The translations under genes and the position numbers were made by a program. 64,000 nt of DNA. Source: a virus (taxonomy: Duplodnaviria; Caudoviricetes). The first letter of the stretch is position 1, and every line of letters starts with the position of its first letter. The stretch spans positions 64,001 through 128,000 of the IMG/VR virus record IMGVR_UViG_3300028591_000085; one strand, 5' to 3'. A model generated the notes under the pieces. It did not search any database, was not told where the DNA came from, and saw only the letters and a program-made list of their open reading frames with translations. This document shows, piece after piece, positions 2,464 through 63,293 of the stretch.

Positions 2464-2494
2464 TGTAAATGATGAAAAATGAATTATACATCAT
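2464..2494 (+). promoter_or_regulatory. Putative early promoter (TGTA-N18-ATACATCAT)
   Basis: Variant of the bipartite motif found before other accessory genes. Confidence 0.5.
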
Positions 2495-2500
2495 TATATT

Positions 2501-2577
2501 GTAATTATTATGAAGTCTACTTATGCATTCCTAATAGAGGAAAGTAAGACATAAGGTGTCGACTTTATAGAATTATA
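2501..2577 (+). ncRNA. Structured 5'-leader, motif 1 copy A
   Basis: GAAGTC-TACTTATG-CA-TTCCT(AATAG)AGGAA-AGTAAGA-CATAAGGTG-TC-GACTTT; covaries with copies at 21704 and 27769. Confidence 0.7.
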
Positions 2578-2603
2578 AATTTTCAAAGAAAGGATCTGAT
2601 TAT

Positions 2604-3464
2604 ATGTATCAGATTATCGAAAAAAATAACACTGCTACCACAATGTCCTCATCCTCGTTGTCGTCGACTGCAATTGTTAAAATTGCAGATAAGATTGGCT
2701 CTGCTAGAACAGCAGAAGCCGCTGAATATAAAGACCGGAGGGTATCTATATACGCCCCATCAATTGGGCGCATAAAAGATGCGCTGACATCAAAAGACAA
2801 ATTTGTCGTGCTCTACGATATGGACGAAGATTTGTATCGGAGACACACTAATGAGGAGGTGATTCGAGCGGTTCACCTCTATTTCCTATCTGTAGATTCA
2901 TCTACTGAGAGGAGGCATCGTGATGCGATGCGACAAGTGGAAATTGCCGTAAGAAATGATTTATCTTACGGCAACGAAAATTATGCCAGGTATTACGAGA
3001 AGTATAAAGAATACTTCAATAAATGCTTGGACAGAGGTATAGAAGCTTTACATATAATCGAGTTTCTTGCGATAGAAAAACAATATCGCAAGAAATTAGT
3101 CCTATACCGAAAAATTAAAATGAGAGTAAAAGTCATATCAATATTGTTATTAACAGTATTGATAGGACTGTTAGTTTTCGGTATAGGACGAGCGATAACT
3201 CGTCCGACTGAAGAACAACGATTACTCTCAGACGGGATGACTGCAGAAATCATTCAGATAAATCCTCGGGATTTAGACCGGGTGTCATTCCCGGGAGTAT
3301 TAGATTACATACGTGTAAAATACCCGTATACCATGAAATATTATTCAGAAAAGGAGGTGATCTCCAATATCGGAGATTTATCCGGAAAGATCAACATTTG
3401 TGCTGAGGTAGAAGAAGGCTCTGTCCAGTACATACCTGTGCGGGTAGTACACCCGATTAAGTAA
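2604..3464 (+). CDS. Membrane-anchored accessory protein, possible degenerate LysM-like C-terminus
   Basis: 286 aa; TM segment VISILLLTVLIGLLVFGIG; C-terminus ...VEEGSVQYIPV. Confidence 0.6.
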   Translation: MYQIIEKNNTATTMSSSSLSSTAIVKIADKIGSARTAEAAEYKDRRVSIYAPSIGRIKDALTSKDKFVVLYDMDEDLYRRHTNEEVIRAVHLYFLSVDSSTERRHRDAMRQVEIAVRNDLSYGNENYARYYEKYKEYFNKCLDRGIEALHIIEFLAIEKQYRKKLVLYRKIKMRVKVISILLLTVLIGLLVFGIGRAITRPTEEQRLLSDGMTAEIIQINPRDLDRVSFPGVLDYIRVKYPYTMKYYSEKEVISNIGDLSGKINICAEVEEGSVQYIPVRVVHPIK

Positions 3465-4251: not shown

Positions 4252-7200
4252 ATGAGTTTAGATTATTTAAATCCAATGGCAAATTTATATAATGAATTTC
4301 TAAAGATATTAAATAATATAGTTATTAAATACACATCTAAAGCTATAGCATGTGAAACTGAAGAGGAACGAAGAGATGCTGAATCATATATGGATGCTAT
4401 AGAAAAGACTGATACATTTGATACATATGCTGAATTCACTGATGATGAATTAGTTGAAGTTGGTATATATGATTATAATATGAGAAAAAAATGTGTTGCG
4501 GATAAATCAAATATTCCGTTTGATAATTATAATGCTGAAACTGGTGAAGGAACTAGTTATAGACATGATTTAGTAGAACTTCGCCGTAAAGAAATAATTG
4601 AAAATTATGTAGAAAAAAATAAGTACTATAGAACATTGAATGGATTACCTGAGCTAAACACTAATCCTGAGTTTTTTGATTATGTCCCGGGTATGATAGC
4701 AGTTCAATGTGGTATACCTTTTGAAGATTTAATATTCGATACTCCGTTTTTGAGAGAATCCGATCTTGAGAGAATGACCTTTGAAGAATTAACAATACCT
4801 GAAGATATGGATGAATTTAATATGTTGCTTAGTAATTATGCTAAATATCGTACTGATTATACAGATTATGCATATAAATATATAATTGAAGATGGAAGGT
4901 TCGTACCTATTGAAAATCTTCATACACGATATGCTGGTAAAACTGTTAAGTTATTAACAAATCTTGGAGATATGGATTTGAACACAGTGACTAATTCAGT
5001 TTATCCTATTCATGAAATTCAAGACCATTATAATAATTTAGATCCTGATTTTCCTGATATGGGAGATCAGATAATGTCTAAATTAGAAGGTATTGGTTTT
5101 ATTGAAAAATTAAAAAAAAATCCTAAAATGTTTGGCATTACTATAAATCCTGACACGGGTGAAGAAATAGAAGACCCTAATAAAATACTTATATACGGAG
5201 GTGCTCTATCTGGTCCCGCTGTGGCTCTTACAGATAAAGCAAAACGGAGAATTTCTAAAAACTCTGGAGTTACTAATTTTTCAAATGTTATAAGAATATC
5301 TGATGATAATAATCCAATAACAGGATATGGGGATAATATCAATATATATTATTCAGTGTCGATTGCTACTACATTTGCTGGTATGAATTTAATTCCCGGT
5401 GACCATATTATGTCAACTGGAATTGGATGGGAAAAAATTTCTATTGAAGAAAAAAGACGTGATGGAGTTAATAGAGAATATCTTAATTTTTTAGGTTCTC
5501 GAAGAATAAGTATAACAAATGCTAGAAAAGCTAAAAATTTTTCAATTCTGCGCTTGGATAAAAATATTGTCAATACGAATATATATGAAGCGTTTATTTC
5601 GATATATGAAGAGTGCAGAGATTATATGACCGTCGTAGTATATCAATATAATTTTTCTGAGTTTATTGCGTATTACGATAATTTCATCGCAATGTGTATC
5701 ATGTTAATGGCTGAGATGCATTTGATAGTACAACAGATACCGTTTGAAATAAGAAGAAATTTCTTTGATCCTTATGCGATACGTATGCTTTATGAAGCAT
5801 ATGATATTCCTTACGATATATATGTCGATATTGAAACTCAGAATATAATTGCTAAAAATTTGAATCTTATAATTCTTCATAAAGCTACTGATAAAGTATT
5901 TTATGATATTTCGCATTTATTAGGATTCAAGAATATCCAAGTATATAAATATTATTTAGCGAAGCAACATCAGTTTGACCCGTGGGGTAATCCGGTATTT
6001 AGTACTAAACAAAAATTCAATAATGATACCGGTAAACTTGAAACGGTTGATGATTATGATTTAATGTATGATATCTATTTTCAAAAAGAAGAACTTAGAG
6101 AAAAAGATTTTATACGAACTTTTAATACATCAGTAAATAAGGTTGATTATCACAGCGTAACATCTGGTGACCCTTATTGGTGGGAAGATCAACATGTTGT
6201 TGATATGAAGAATAAATCTGAGTATAATTTTGTTGAAAGTAAGTATCTTGGACTTACAATGTCATATAAAATGACTGAAGTAATGTTTGAGAATATAGTT
6301 CTTCTCAAAGCATTATTATATTATAGGAAAGAACTTAGAGAGATAAGTGTGAATCTTTCAAGAATTATGTCAGGCGCGTCAGTATCTATCTTTGATGCGA
6401 TAATATTACTTCTTGCTATGATGAGTAGTGTACATCGTCTTAAAGGTGAGATTATTACAGTACCATCTGATATTGTAAATGTATTAGATTATCTCAATAA
6501 TATGGGAGCAAGTAATCATGTTGGAGAATATGATTCATTTGCTTTTGATTTTGATTTCTTTAAAAAAGATATCAATGGTGAAAGTAAATCTGATGCATTA
6601 GTAGAAAGAGTTAAACGCGCTCTTAGTAAAAGAGTGAAAGGTTATATAGTTGATGATACAACGTTTGAAGAAAAACAACAATATATTCTTGATTATTGCA
6701 TGAGGACTGGTGCAACTCCTCCTGTTGATATGAATAATCGCGAAATTATTGAAGAAGATTATTACGAGATATATCAACCTAATTATTACGTATATGACAA
6801 TCCCCCGTATTATACTTTATATTCGGGTGCTATCAAAACATATAAACGTAATACTTATGGTAATGCTAAAACGAAACAAGTTGTTCCTGATAACTTTAAA
6901 AACTTTGATCCTGAAACGATGGTCCACAAATCCGATGTACGTCAAGATATCTTTGATGTTAGATTATACGAATACGTTTCAGAAAACAAAGAGACAGTTG
7001 TTCAAAGGAATGTAGACGCGTTTAAGGTTGAGAATATGCTTAAACGTGGTGAGCTTAAAGAAATCCAAATAGATCATCATGATATTGATGTAGATACATT
7101 TGAAAAATATCTTTCCGTTCTTTCATTTAGTAGTGAGAAAACTCGTGCTGAAAAAATTGAAACATTCAATCTTATATATAGAAATATAAGAAATCTTTAT

Positions 7201-21469: not shown

Positions 21470-21649
21470 TCATTTGACGAAAAAGAGCTCGATGAGGTCG
21501 TTGATAAATATCATGACCTCATCGAGCGTTATGGTCTCCTTTCTGTCTCCTTTTAACCATATCATTAATCTCTCGATGGTCATTATCGTCCATACAAAAA
21601 CTATGATGGCTGCAACCGCTGTTGCAAGAATAACGTTGAGTATCGTCAT
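21470..21649 (-). CDS. 59-aa small membrane protein (absent from the ORF track)
   Basis: MTILNVILATAVAAIIVFVWTIMTIERLMIWLKGDRKETITLDEVMIFINDLIELFFVK*, GAAAGGA RBS, own promoter. Confidence 0.75.
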   Translation of the reverse strand: MTILNVILATAVAAIIVFVWTIMTIERLMIWLKGDRKETITLDEVMIFINDLIELFFVK

Positions 21650-21703: not shown

Positions 21704-21768
21704 ATTCATTATACGAAACCTTACGTCTTACTTTCTTCTATTAGAAATGCGTAAGTTGTATAATGAAT
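21704..21768 (-). ncRNA. Structured 5'-leader, motif 1 copy B
   Basis: TTATAC-AACTTACG-CA-TTTCT(AATAGA)AGAAA-GTAAGA-CGTAAGGTT-TC-GTATAA. Confidence 0.7.
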
Positions 21769-21781
21769 ATTATTCATTATA

Positions 21782-21861
21782 CACGGAGATAGTATATCAT
21801 TGAAGAAATTGAGTTTACGGATAAAAGTATAAGCAAAACAAATAATTAAGTTAATAAATTA
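21782..21861. repeat. ~80-bp direct repeat 2: back-to-back early/late promoters
   Basis: Copy of 19839-19918. Confidence 0.8.
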
Positions 21862-25163: not shown

Positions 25164-25271
25164 TTATAGTTAATTCGAATGGATTAGCTACCGACTTGTG
25201 TTTATACTTGTCGGATTGTACACAATTTTATTTTTACACTAATCTATTTTTTATGAAGGAGTGAATTATAA

Positions 25272-27077
25272 ATGCTTACATTTTTAAGTGAGTCGGCTAA
25301 GGATTTTAAAGAGACTGCTACTGTAGGTGGTTTTACCTCTGGACATTCCAATGGTTTCGACGATATTTTTACTGAGGCCTATGATTCAATGCTCGCAAAT
25401 GGTATTGATGTAATGGTCGACATTAATCCGATGATTCGGAATAAGGCTAAGCTGAATGCATTCAAGGACGCTCTCATTGGTGAGCTTAAAACTGAATGTG
25501 CAAACATGGCTGATACTGAGGGTGAGTTTGGTACTCATGCCCATCTGTATGATCAGGTATCTGATATGTTTGATAACTGTGTGGAGGACTTCTATAAGGA
25601 GTCAACTAAGGTTCCTCAGCTTCTCCCGATTAAGGCTATTGATTTCCCGATTCTGGTAAAGCAGCAGCTTAAGCTTGCTACTAAGGATATTATCCAGACC
25701 GAGGTTACTAAGAGCCCCATTATCAAGAAGCATATTGAGCAGACCTATATCGTTGATAACAATGATAAGACTAGAAGATGGAAGTATCCTCAGTGCTTCT
25801 TCACTGATGATTTCAAGGAGATCTTCAAGGCTGGTAAGGGTCTTCCGATTAAGAATACTCCTGTAAACCTTCCTGTTTCTAATCTTAATGTACCTGCTGT
25901 TCTGACTGATGCGGATGCAGTTGGTTCCAAGACTAATTCAGGTCGTGAGAATTTCACAATGGATCTTAAGATCACTAAGGTTCTTGTAGAGGATCCTGAT
26001 GATGATACTAAGACTATTACTGTAACTCTTCCCCGTCCCATGAGAATCAATCTTTCTGATAATCAGTGGCTCGGCGGTAAGATTGATACTACTGTTATCG
26101 GTTCTAATGGTACAGAAGCTCATATTACTGACCATATTATGGGTGTTGCAGACTTTGTTGCTAATACTACTTCTCTTGCAGCAGTAGAAGGCAATGTAAA
26201 GGCTGTTATCTTTGATGGTTATCTCTCGAATGAGAAGAACGAGAGACACGTAACGTTCGATTATGCACGCGAAGAGATCGAGTGGAAGATCGAAGACGGT
26301 ACTCGTGTAAACGTTCCTTACTCCCTTGAGGAGCTTGAGGACGCTAAGGCTCTTATGGACATCGACCTCTATAAGAAGACTTACAATAATCTGTCTGACT
26401 ACATGACTCAGATGGAGGATTCTACTATTCTCGCATGGCTCGACGATCAGTTCAATCTCTACGATGGTGTTGAGATTTCTCAGGACGATATCCTCGGTTG
26501 GGGTTCGTTTATCACCAAGAGAGTATTTGACTGCGATTCTACTTCGCTGACTACTGCTCTGCCTAATGAGTACATTGAGAAGATGCTCAAGTTTAAGATC
26601 GACAGACTTATCATCGATATCTGCGATAAGGCTAAGCTTGAGGATATGACTTTCGTTATCTACGGTAACCCGAGATTCATTTCTCTCCTCAATCCCGTAG
26701 TTAACTGGATTACCAGACCCGGTTCCACCGCTAATGGTGTTAAGCTTGATTATAGCTATGGCATCATGACTTCCGGTGATGTTAAGGTACAGGTTGTATC
26801 TACTAAGAAGGTTAATGCTTCTTATGATGACGACAAGAAGGAGTTCTCTGGTATCAGAATTATTCCGTTCCCGCTGTCTAATGAGCAGTTTACCTTCAAG
26901 CACTACAAGTACACCACTCATATTCTGACCGCTCAGAATAGTGCGTACCGTGCTCCTGATCTCCCGGGTGGTTCTATGACCAACCTGATGGGTGTATCTC
27001 GTTATACGAATGCTGCTATCCAGGGTATCCAGGCGCAGCTTAAGTTCGCTAACGCTGAGACTTACATCGAGATCTAA
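25272..27077 (+). CDS. Major capsid protein precursor
   Basis: 601 aa; strongest high-expression codon bias in the window; own promoter and terminator; size and context fit a jumbo-phage capsid protein. Confidence 0.75.
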   Translation: MLTFLSESAKDFKETATVGGFTSGHSNGFDDIFTEAYDSMLANGIDVMVDINPMIRNKAKLNAFKDALIGELKTECANMADTEGEFGTHAHLYDQVSDMFDNCVEDFYKESTKVPQLLPIKAIDFPILVKQQLKLATKDIIQTEVTKSPIIKKHIEQTYIVDNNDKTRRWKYPQCFFTDDFKEIFKAGKGLPIKNTPVNLPVSNLNVPAVLTDADAVGSKTNSGRENFTMDLKITKVLVEDPDDDTKTITVTLPRPMRINLSDNQWLGGKIDTTVIGSNGTEAHITDHIMGVADFVANTTSLAAVEGNVKAVIFDGYLSNEKNERHVTFDYAREEIEWKIEDGTRVNVPYSLEELEDAKALMDIDLYKKTYNNLSDYMTQMEDSTILAWLDDQFNLYDGVEISQDDILGWGSFITKRVFDCDSTSLTTALPNEYIEKMLKFKIDRLIIDICDKAKLEDMTFVIYGNPRFISLLNPVVNWITRPGSTANGVKLDYSYGIMTSGDVKVQVVSTKKVNASYDDDKKEFSGIRIIPFPLSNEQFTFKHYKYTTHILTAQNSAYRAPDLPGGSMTNLMGVSRYTNAAIQGIQAQLKFANAETYIEI

Positions 27078-27110
27078 TTAATTTATATTTTAAGAATTTT
27101 ATAACATGAT

Positions 27111-27245: not shown

Positions 27246-27740
27246 TTAGCTAAGCATAGCAGATAATTTAATTAAAATATTAGTTATCCTATCACCATTA
27301 ACAAGATTTTCACCAAGATACCCTTCATAAGTATCCATATTTAATCTTTCACCATTAAAGGATATCTCACTTATCTTTCTTTCATGAATAAATGACATAG
27401 AGTCACCATCCAATGTTAATGAAACGGTAATAGTCATGCCGAAATCAGAATTAGTTATCCCGATTATAAATACCGAATCAAGATTACTGTATTGGGTGTC
27501 ATTATAGAACGCAGAATATGATACGGTGATCGAGGATTTAGTTCCGTTATTTTCTGTAACAATAAATGGAGCTGACGGAAAATACCTAAAACCGATTAAC
27601 TTTGAGTCGTCACTCAAAAGATCCTTTACTTCACTACACGAATCGTCATTGATCAAAGTTTCAGAACCTTTTTTGTACAGCTTCCATATTGCGAGCCTTA
27701 AAGCCAGCTCAAATTCATCCATCTTCTTTATACCATTCAT
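27246..27740 (-). CDS. Accessory hypothetical protein
   Basis: 164 aa, AAGGAGG RBS, structured leader. Confidence 0.75.
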   Translation of the reverse strand: MNGIKKMDEFELALRLAIWKLYKKGSETLINDDSCSEVKDLLSDDSKLIGFRYFPSAPFIVTENNGTKSSITVSYSAFYNDTQYSNLDSVFIIGITNSDFGMTITVSLTLDGDSMSFIHERKISEISFNGERLNMDTYEGYLGENLVNGDRITNILIKLSAMLS

Positions 27741-27768
27741 TGAATAGTACCTCCTTATAATATTTACT

Positions 27769-27842
27769 TAAAAATATCATTCTGAACTTTACGAGTCTTA
27801 TTATCCACTAATTGGATTGCGTAAATTAAAATAATATTTTTA
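27769..27842 (-). ncRNA. Structured 5'-leader, motif 1 copy C
   Basis: AATTTACG-CA-ATCCA(ATTAG)TGGAT-AATAAGA-CT-CGTAAAGTT within a 15-bp outer stem; ATATATTAT at 27872-27880. Confidence 0.65.
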
Positions 27843-27883
27843 GCATACGTCCTTTATATTAAGACTAAAAAATAATATATAAT

Positions 27884-63038: not shown

Positions 63039-63100
63039 TTTACTTTGTTTTGTTGACAAGGGATAACAAAGACCTACCGAATTGCAGGTGAAAAACCCTT
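63039..63100 (-). ncRNA. Structured leader motif 2 (pseudoknot), copy E
   Basis: AAGGG-TTTTTCA-CCTGC(AATTCG)GTAGG-T-CTTTGTT-AT-CCCTT-GTCAACAA-AACAAAG. Confidence 0.7.
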
Positions 63101-63111
63101 TTAAATAAATT

Positions 63112-63210
63112 ATGTATATAATAAGTTCAGTACAGCGACGCCCTGTTTTTCCTCTTTTAGGAACATATAAATTATTCAGGTTGCTGTAATGAATATTATT
63201 CATATACACA
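63112..63210 (-). ncRNA. Divergent copy of leader motif 1
   Basis: TACAGC-AACCTG...TTCCT(AAAAG)AGGAA-AAA-CAGG-GCG-TC-GCTGTA. Confidence 0.5.
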
Positions 63211-63213
63211 TAA

Positions 63214-63293
63214 ATAATGTATATATTAAAAAAACCGAAATACGGATAAAAAAAGATTTTACGGTTTTTATACTAATTTAAACATTATATTAA
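63214..63293. promoter_or_regulatory. Back-to-back early (-) and late (+) promoters
   Basis: CGTA-N18-ATACATTAT on - (63214-63244); AACA-TTATAT-TAA on + (63281). Confidence 0.65.

Follow-up and report, generated by a model that had tools for sequence, protein, structure and literature searches.

The leader hairpin and its copies

The stretch of DNA considered here (hereafter the window) comprises bases 64001-128000 of one 203,042-bp contig with 31% G+C (IMG/VR record IMGVR_UViG_3300028591_000085), and our subject is an RNA hairpin that occurs in it three times, in each case in the 5' untranslated region (UTR) between an early-type promoter and the ribosome-binding site (RBS) of an accessory gene. 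The hairpin of copy 1 occupies 2501..2576 (+) and is followed by an RBS (AAAGGA) and an open reading frame (ORF) of 286 aa (together 2589..3464 +, ATG at 2604), for which neither Pfam nor PHROG gave a match. That of copy 2 (21704..21768 -) precedes an ORF of 59 aa with a hydrophobic N-terminus (21470..21649 -; merely a sub-threshold PhoR match in the Pfam scan), and that of copy 3 (27765..27845 -) an ORF of 164 aa (27246..27740 -).

Read from its 5' end, the hairpin consists of an outer stem of variable sequence (P1, 11 to 18 or more bp), an unpaired AA or UA, a second stem (P2, YUUAYG/CRUAAR), an unpaired CA and a 5-bp stem (P3) with an AWUAG loop; the 3' half returns through ARUAAGA, the 3' arm of P2 and a G-N-N-U-C strand to the 3' arm of P1. 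In the predicted folds the complete structure measures 72-88 nt, with 24-33 bp across P1-P2-P3. Copy 1 has a P1 of about 18 bp with a single bulged A, UA at 2518-2519, P2 at 2520-2525/2550-2555, CA at 2526-2527, P3 at 2528-2532/2538-2542, the loop AAUAG at 2533-2537, AGUAAGA at 2543-2549 and GUGUC at 2556-2560 (all +). The corresponding parts of copy 2 are P1 21768-21758/21714-21704 (11 bp), AA 21757-21756, P2 21755-21750/21725-21720 and GUUUC 21719-21715 (all -), and those of copy 3 a P1 of about 14-18 bp, AA 27827-27826, P2 UUUACG 27825-27820 / CGUAAA 27793-27788, P3 AUCCA/UGGAU with the loop AUUAG, AAUAAGACU at 27802-27794 and GUUC at 27787-27784 (all -). Each of the three folds better than 200/200 shuffles (z -3.7 to -4.6; -4.59 for copy 1 and -3.65 for copy 3).

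These copies and their layout had been recognised in a first-pass annotation made from the letters of the window, and the pattern GCA-N5-AWTAG-N5-ARTAAGAC, for which 0.00 sites are expected from 100 shuffles, finds just the three. A covariance model built from five copies (R1) scores copies 1, 2 and 3 at 77.0, 79.4 and 67.4 bits (E = 2.7e-17, 6e-18 and 1e-14) and detects ten sites in the 203-kb genome, with scores of 44.9-80.5 bits and E-values from 3e-18 to 1e-8; the match that ranks next has an E of 4.9. Seven of the ten, which are additional to those of the annotation, lie outside the window, at genome positions 42621+, 43507+, 136221-, 141487-, 152479-, 159170+ and 174453+, and all ten are in sense orientation to the downstream ORF. 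A pattern scan of metagenomes returned 18 loci, from ruminant gut, within which R1 scores 21 matches; many of these loci are contigs with names beginning AUXO or Ga that hold several copies apiece. One metagenome copy without P3 (L033:12452) retains the remaining features.

The annotation had further claimed that the stems vary compensatorily while the loops are conserved, and this is borne out by an alignment of 24 distinct sequences. Standard pairs fill 91.8% of pair cells as against 78.4% in shuffled alignments, and 13 of the 17 pairs change on both sides (P1 6/6, P2 4/6 and P3 3/5, the last under-sampled because most metagenome copies were retrieved with a pattern that fixes P3). The observed values were reached by 0/500 shuffles on any of five measures, and the covariation score is 0.384, compared with 0.03-0.11 in slid-partner controls, for an alignment that had been fitted to the model. 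An alternative P2' pairing (CUUAC with GUAAG of the inner loop) was dropped, as covariation does not maintain it. The stems contain G-U pairs, which together with the constant sense orientation point to an RNA on the sense strand. Mean pairwise identity is 0.80 in unpaired core columns, 0.69 in paired columns, 0.3-0.4 in P1 columns and 0.36 in the 30-nt flanks; copies are identical over a stretch of only some 40 nt, and the core stands out as an island of conservation inside unrelated flanks. Unpaired columns that are more conserved than P1 or the flanks are the mark that functional loops, rather than a recent duplication, would leave. Because the stems covary and the unpaired core is better conserved than P1 or the flanks, the hairpin is a strand-specific structured RNA under selection.

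Resemblances to known structural modules were also considered. A kink-turn of the L7Ae type, which has a 3-nt bulge and then tandem sheared G-A / A-G pairs, fits neither the inner loop (CA opposite A(G)U(A)AGW, 2n = C, 2b = A or U, bulge of 4-5 nt) nor the outer one (AA opposite GNNUC), as neither yields tandem G-A, and inspection of the alignment by eye for sarcin-ricin, hairpin-ribozyme and T-loop resemblances gave none that fits.

Distribution and versions among relatives

IMG/VR classes the contig as a virus, with completeness estimated at 85%, and among its products are a major head protein, a large terminase, subunits of topoisomerase II and a reductase resembling NrdD. The head protein shares 22-25% identity with its counterparts in the Bacillus phages AR9/PBS1, Staphylococcus jumbo phages and Yersinia phiR1-37, and 62-86% with those of nine uncultivated IMG/VR contigs, and the RNA and DNA runs that contain the phage sequence are sheep and bovine gut samples. 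Judged from these identities and runs, the source of the window is an uncultivated AR9/PBS1-like giant phage of ruminant guts. Hereafter G000 denotes this phage's own genome, and G001, G002, G004 and G005 denote IMG/VR relatives.

A scan with Rfam 15 gave 0 matches at the gathering threshold in the 64-kb window, in keeping with the annotation's failure to match the hairpin to a riboswitch or ribozyme class, and in a permissive scan of 2400-2650 the best overlaps were with snoRNA/telomerase models at 14-18 bits (thresholds 50-52, E above 1). R1 found no significant match in AR9, the Staphylococcus phages Machias and SA1, BpSp, phiR1-37 or SPO1 (for the last, in the complete genome at E up to 1), nor in the nine IMG/VR relatives with capsid identities of 62-86%, and three motif patterns run against IMG/VR returned chance matches only, in which the P3 pairing is absent. 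Mimicry of a CRISPR repeat was considered and rejected: of two patterns run against 185,579 species genomes, one gave 0 matches and the other 3 chance matches, none folding as the motif, and neither bacterial copies nor CRISPR-like arrays of the core came to light.

A simpler hairpin occupies the same position, from the transcription start (+1) onwards, in early leaders of G002 (250 kb; capsid protein 86% identical). It reads long stem-AA-CUUC-AUAGY-GAAG-GYRUC-long stem (e.g. L057:3398-3437 +), and differs from the window motif in its longer P1 and lack of P3. With a second model, R2, nine copies are recovered from G002 (L052-L064) and one weak variant from G001 (loop AUAUC, GCGUU), and none from G000 or the other relatives; AR9, SPO1 and the more distant relatives carry neither version. 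As the 5' AA bulge, the CUU...AAG start of P2, the AUAG-type loop and the 3' G-N-N-U-C strand are common to both versions, the window motif may be regarded as the same element as the G002 hairpin, with a longer P2 and an inserted P3 branch; this shorter homologue is an addition to what the annotation had described. Each genome holds one core version (ten P3-branched copies in G000, nine shorter ones in G002, a further variant in G001), and phages with capsid proteins each 86% identical to that of the present phage have different core architectures. Structured early leaders are a theme of this phage clade, each genome keeping one version, and on the comparisons made here the hairpin represents a new RNA family of a familiar general kind, known so far from a single lineage of giant phages in ruminant guts.

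The small size of the hairpin, its conservation, its occurrence in phages and its conserved unpaired nucleotides might conceivably suggest a self-cleaving ribozyme of a new class. We find this scarcely credible, given that no Rfam ribozyme model matched, that a continuous 6-bp helix without a hinge separates the loops (which by our own reasoning would prevent docking as in the hairpin ribozyme) and that the G002 homologue has no inner loop altogether.

The more distant G004 (L065-L077) and G005 (L078-L089) each have their own conserved leader hairpin, which abuts the Shine-Dalgarno sequence (SD): AAAGUCCU...AGGCA(G/A)AAGGA in G004 and G(A/U)CCUAUC(G/A)G(C/A)CUUAACGGGGAGAAGGAG in G005.

Early promoters and cargo genes

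The location of the copies behind early-type promoters, proposed in the annotation, is supported by a consensus mapped experimentally for the early promoters of the AR9 virion RNA polymerase (RNAP), AAATATATATTAT-N6-G(+1) (PMC5312081). Copy 1 is preceded by TATACATCAT-N6-G at 2485..2501 (+; predicted +1 G2501), which fits this consensus, copy 2 by GATATACTAT-N6-G at 21782..21798 (-; predicted +1 G21782) and copy 3 by TATATATTAT-N6-G at 27865..27881 (-; predicted +1 G27865). The element of copy 1, with G at +1, recurs in relatives L030 and L026, and TATAYAWTAT-N6-G/A is found upstream in 11/11 leaders. With an TATATATTAT-like element, N6 and G, and with starts that are predicted, the units look like AR9-type virion-RNAP early transcription units. 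PMC5312081 mentions, as Fig. S3, a predicted motif of unexplained function in AR9 early 5' UTRs, which likewise lies in virion-RNAP early leaders of a related giant phage and for which R1, having no match in AR9, offers no counterpart. A simple promoter regular expression matches this AT-rich genome 255 times, too noisily for early promoters to be counted exactly; in that noisy scan numerous further candidate early promoters are followed by short leaders that do not contain the motif, and the motif would therefore mark a subset of early genes.

Each cassette is made up of promoter, leader, strong RBS, single ORF and terminator, and the cassettes appear to be monocistronic, with terminators of their own. 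The predicted +1 precedes the modelled core by 9-29 nt. From the end of the core to the ATG there are mostly 33-38 nt, with 55-111 nt in a few instances, and in most predicted folds 7-15 nt separate the hairpin from a strong SD. These distances bear on the idea that the RNA acts on the transcribing virion RNAP, in the manner of HK022 put, and so modifies pausing or termination. The hairpin directly follows the promoter in every copy and the polymerase is phage-specific, as such a role would suggest; yet the spacing is fixed to the RBS (mostly 33-38 nt from core to ATG) rather than to the promoter, and in monocistronic cassettes with their own terminators read-through would have no obvious use, which leaves the idea most improbable.

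The cargo ORFs encode 59-301 aa, are mutually unrelated, and gave no significant Pfam match and just one PHROG match, to a family of unknown function. The latter concerns the cassette L003:2713-3066 (+; genome 42713-43066), whose 117-aa product has an NLTPH motif (phrog_30542); N-termini related to it follow the same leader in L031 and L032. Cargo genes are mostly without counterpart in the close relative G002, and extra or different cargo stands behind the same leader in relatives (L029, L032). Assembled contigs from four sheep and bovine gut RNA runs join the leader to its ORF, and one sheep-gut metatranscriptome contig spans copy 3 from core to ORF (27498-27831) at 100% identity; the contig ends at 27831 and 27840, inside P1 of copy 3, are not interpretable as transcript ends.

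Repeated promoter-leader modules beside ORFan-like genes, between core operons, with cargo mostly missing from G002 and other cargo behind the same leader in L029 and L032, could also be read at the DNA level, as mobile regulatory cassettes whose promoter-plus-hairpin repeats supply the recombination homology by which accessory genes are shuffled. A precedent exists in the PeSL stem-loops of T4-type phages, which frequently combine a poly-G with a following poly-C run, are terminators and lie in or upstream of the promoter (PMC2839356). As in the present case, an early promoter and a stem-loop are there repeated upstream of ORFans in variable regions, and PeSLs have been linked to modular gene shuffling (PMC2839356, PMC4122927). 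However, the PeSL stem-loop sits in or beside a sigma-70 promoter, not in a transcribed leader, while our hairpin is AU-rich, lies 3' of +1 within the 5' UTR, has none of the U-run of a terminator, and possesses RNA covariation and asymmetric loops. Its compensatory changes and G-U pairs indicate selection on RNA pairing, and the identical stretch of just about 40 nt is bounded by flanks at background identity. We therefore consider a DNA-level role improbable; recombination between cassettes may be a by-product.

Two leader architectures

In the predicted folds the mRNA 5' end is base-paired in both of two leader classes, and 10/11 full-leader folds have pairing that sets in 0-3 nt from the predicted +1. 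In the first class P1 begins at +1 to +3 (copies 1 and 2, the copies at 136221, 141487 and 174453, and relatives L028, L031, L033 and L040). In the second, the P0 class, the predicted start lies 23-29 nt before the core, and the region of the start codon is paired with the first 9-12 nt of the transcript, with energies of -9 to -14 kcal/mol. This pairing of 5' end and start codon, also new with respect to the annotation, is found in at least ten leaders, half of the copies being without it, and its partners change together (CAUAAUGAU/AUCAUUAUG; CAUAAUAAU/AUUAUUAUG; AUAACUAAU/AUUAGUUAU). The predicted P0 helix covers the AUG and leaves the SD free.

Such a helix might serve as the expression platform of a riboswitch that adjusts translation when a small molecule occupies the two conserved internal loops. 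The loops are asymmetric, lie between covarying stems and match no known family, and closure of P1 in the P0 subclass would favour hiding of the AUG. Nevertheless, in most copies P1 is followed neither by a terminator-like stem and U-run nor by an anti-SD helix, the folds leave the SD single-stranded, the long P1 is already stable in the absence of a ligand, and P0 itself is missing from half of the copies. The cargo genes are moreover unrelated, whereas riboswitches usually control a pathway, and the proposed pocket is re-modelled between close relatives. We regard a riboswitch as very improbable, and the annotation's suggestion of a new riboswitch or ribozyme has consequently lost ground.

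The leader of copy 2 has a peculiarity of its own. Its first 11 transcribed nt (GUAUAAUGAAU, 21782-21772 -) are identical to the P1 3' arm (21704-21714 -), so that the P1 5' arm can pair with either repeat and a competing 5' hairpin of equal strength is predicted; the leader may thus possibly adopt two states. The stretch 21772-21782 (-) also includes a TGnTATAAT-like extended -10. In another subclass, comprising many leaders that we call type A, the base of P1 carries a conserved GUCAAU / (A)UUGAGAC pairing with a GA bulge (e.g. L003 2614-2619 with 2678-2685, and L006 about 4411-4418), and an AAAAUAA(A)UUUUAA spacer precedes AAGGAGG. From +1 to ATG, the type-A leader behaves as one portable unit.

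Possible functions of the hairpin

The ten copies look like a regulon, because all of them follow AR9-type early promoters and precede unrelated ORFs without Pfam matches, and the hairpin is probably a shared control handle for early messages. Its structure, copy number, promoter and RBS context, loop conservation and lineage-specific versions have been observed, whereas a binding partner and a direction of control are inferred. The account that we tentatively favour is that of a hairpin which caps the 5' end and offers its conserved loops to a sequence-specific protein, so that the messages would be controlled together after transcription; a protein-binding operator had also been among the candidate roles listed in the annotation. 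According to this proposal, the hairpin would form the 5'-terminal part of the leader in stand-alone early cassettes and act in cis after transcription. The long P1, or the P0 helix in one subclass, would bury the first nucleotides of the mRNA and limit decay that depends on the 5' end, while the 5' AA opposite G-N-N-U-C, the CA opposite A(G)U(A)AGW and the AWUAG loop would provide a recognition surface. The reader would be a sequence-specific RNA-binding protein, more likely encoded by the phage than by the host, that switches the stability or translation of the whole cassette set jointly, most plausibly as a shut-off of early accessory genes; in P0-type leaders its binding could lock the helix that hides the AUG.

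A protein that reads the loops is favoured because a stem alone would suffice for 5' protection, yet the unpaired nucleotides are the best conserved. That the version is uniform within a genome and different between close relatives fits co-evolution with a phage-specific partner. The fixed distance to the translation signals, the compensatory changes in the P0 helix and the pairing of the 5' end close to the predicted +1 also count in favour of this account. One may go further and see in the hairpin the RNA half of a phage-specific switch, in which a dedicated phage protein reads AA/GNNUC and the apical loops, co-evolves with them and turns the early cassettes on or off jointly; we hold this stricter form to be somewhat doubtful, though more likely than a new ligand sensor or an RNA that acts on the virion RNAP, but if it is true, AR9/phiKZ-like giant phages would have their first described regulon at the post-transcriptional level.

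Precedents for a shared signal exist: T4 RegA recognises one RNA signal common to many early messages, and the MS2 coat protein binds an RNA hairpin. As with these, a shared RNA signal or protein-bound hairpin would permit joint post-transcriptional control. RegA and MS2 sites are, however, short and overlap the start codon, whereas the leader motif is a larger hairpin of 75-90 nt, ends 7-15 nt 5' of the SD and has a putative binder.

Several points weigh against the protein-bound hairpin. The +1 positions are predictions from the consensus of a distant relative, AR9, and transcript ends are unreadable from assembled contigs. Minimum-free-energy folds are unstable in AU-rich leaders, and for several copies the best fold is not the full hairpin, while the conservation of P3 and its loop is inflated by the way in which metagenome copies were retrieved. 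Uniformity within a genome could equally arise by gene conversion between cassettes. Finally, no candidate binding protein was found: of the 31 ORFs common to G000 and G002 and absent from G004/G005, the 20 scanned against Pfam gave DHFR, glutaredoxin, NrdG-like, leucine-rich-repeat and similar matches and no RNA-binding domain.

A different outcome of the same structure would be processing. T7 early mRNA contains ten RNase III sites and is processed by RNase III. The hairpin resembles these, and the Bs-RNase III sites reported for SP82/SPO1 early mRNA (Panganiban & Whiteley 1983, as related in PMC4838370), in that irregular hairpins with differing stems and a shared internal-loop design are dispersed ahead of early genes. 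On this explanation the host enzyme would cut the irregular helix of 24-33 bp, so that the mRNA then starts shortly before the strong SD, and in P0-type leaders the cut would also free the sequestered start codon and hence be activating. The duplex exceeds the at least 20 bp, or about two helical turns, that mark such sites; its total length is roughly constant between versions (G002 having a longer P1 and no P3); and the strong AAGGAGG SDs could protect the 5'-monophosphate product. The B. subtilis enzyme, moreover, cleaves well-paired intramolecular duplexes much like that of E. coli (PMC11780869).

The likeness to T7 and SP82/SPO1 has its limits, however, as our apical loops are conserved, the hairpin occupies the extreme 5' end of transcripts with a single cistron instead of lying between cistrons, and these transcripts would be made by a multisubunit virion RNAP. 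RNase III reads the shape of a helix over the sequence of its loops, whereas here apical and inner loops are 80-100% identical while P1 drifts to background, and it does not explain why close relatives should have different cores. A phage-encoded RNase III domain (PF14622) is absent from G000, G002, G004 and G005. The first-pass annotation had named processing or stabilising sites of the SPO1/SP82 kind among the candidate roles, and here the analogy stands while a sequence link does not, R1 finding nothing in SPO1 that would connect the hairpin to known Bacillus-phage sites. Overall, we think it rather unlikely that the hairpin is an RNase III-type site.

The remaining explanation requires no partner. 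As a passive 5' stabiliser or insulator, the hairpin would shield scarce virion-RNAP transcripts from decay by RNase J1, RppH and RNase Y and insulate the RBS from upstream sequence, the loops being conserved through copying or gene conversion. In the ermC and aprE leaders, 5'-terminal stem-loops stabilise B. subtilis mRNAs, and there as here the stem lies within a few nt of +1 and a strong SD follows. The stem begins at +1 to +3 in most copies, the cassettes look portable, with cargo absent from relatives, and the persistence of AR9 early transcripts to 30-40 min (PMC5312081) can be counted in favour of the idea. Still, a pure stabiliser needs the stem only, and those of ermC and aprE need no conserved loops and form no multi-copy family; in our hairpin it is the stems that vary and the unpaired nucleotides that are most conserved, and the AA / GNNUC loop has been kept even in G002, G001 and the divergent site, where the hairpin is otherwise re-modelled. 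Purely passive stabilisation accordingly seems unlikely to us.

Significance

Giant phages with their own RNA polymerases have been studied mostly at the level of promoters, and the later fate of their early messages is almost unknown. The structured RNA described here is well supported, marks a defined subset of early cassettes and evolves in step within each genome; the marked cassettes probably serve host takeover or counter-defence. Were the hairpin a protein operator or a processing site, it would offer a handle for finding the regulator, aid the recognition of early accessory genes in uncultivated rumen phages, and could supply a portable module for expression and stability in Firmicutes. 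Its present weight is limited by a narrow distribution, in one phage lineage of ruminant guts.

Further features of the window and its relatives

Capsid-gene contigs (window 25174-27110 +) of a relative with about 41 differences in 1.6 kb reach a summed depth of 12-106 in three bovine-gut RNA libraries, in which genes neighbouring the capsid gene have a summed depth of about 0-10; this suggests active infection in those samples, contig depth being a poor measure.

A fourth, divergent copy of the hairpin had been proposed in the annotation at 63112-63210 (-). The site, which we place at 63114..63223 (-), retains an AR9-type promoter (TATACATTAT-N6-G, +1 at 63207), a long P1 from +1, the AA / GCGUC loop, P2 (CCUG/CAGG) and a UUCCU-AAAAG-AGGAA hairpin. 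It is not detected by R1, however, and the asymmetry of its inner loop is reversed relative to the clear copies, so that it is better viewed as a relative of the motif than as a member. The ORF behind this leader (63016-62219 -) encodes 265 aa.

Between the two, 3' of the divergent hairpin, lies a pseudoknot-like element (motif 2, about 63039-63100 -), which gave no Rfam match at the gathering threshold. It stands directly 5' of the RBS and reads GGGUUU...hairpin...CUUUGUU..CCC..AACAAAG, followed by a small hairpin with the SD in its loop. Motif 2 is also found at L007 (about 6540-6615 +) and 3' of every motif-1b hairpin in G002 and G001 (e.g. L090 150-240 -); it covaries between genomes and follows all the long early leaders seen in G002.

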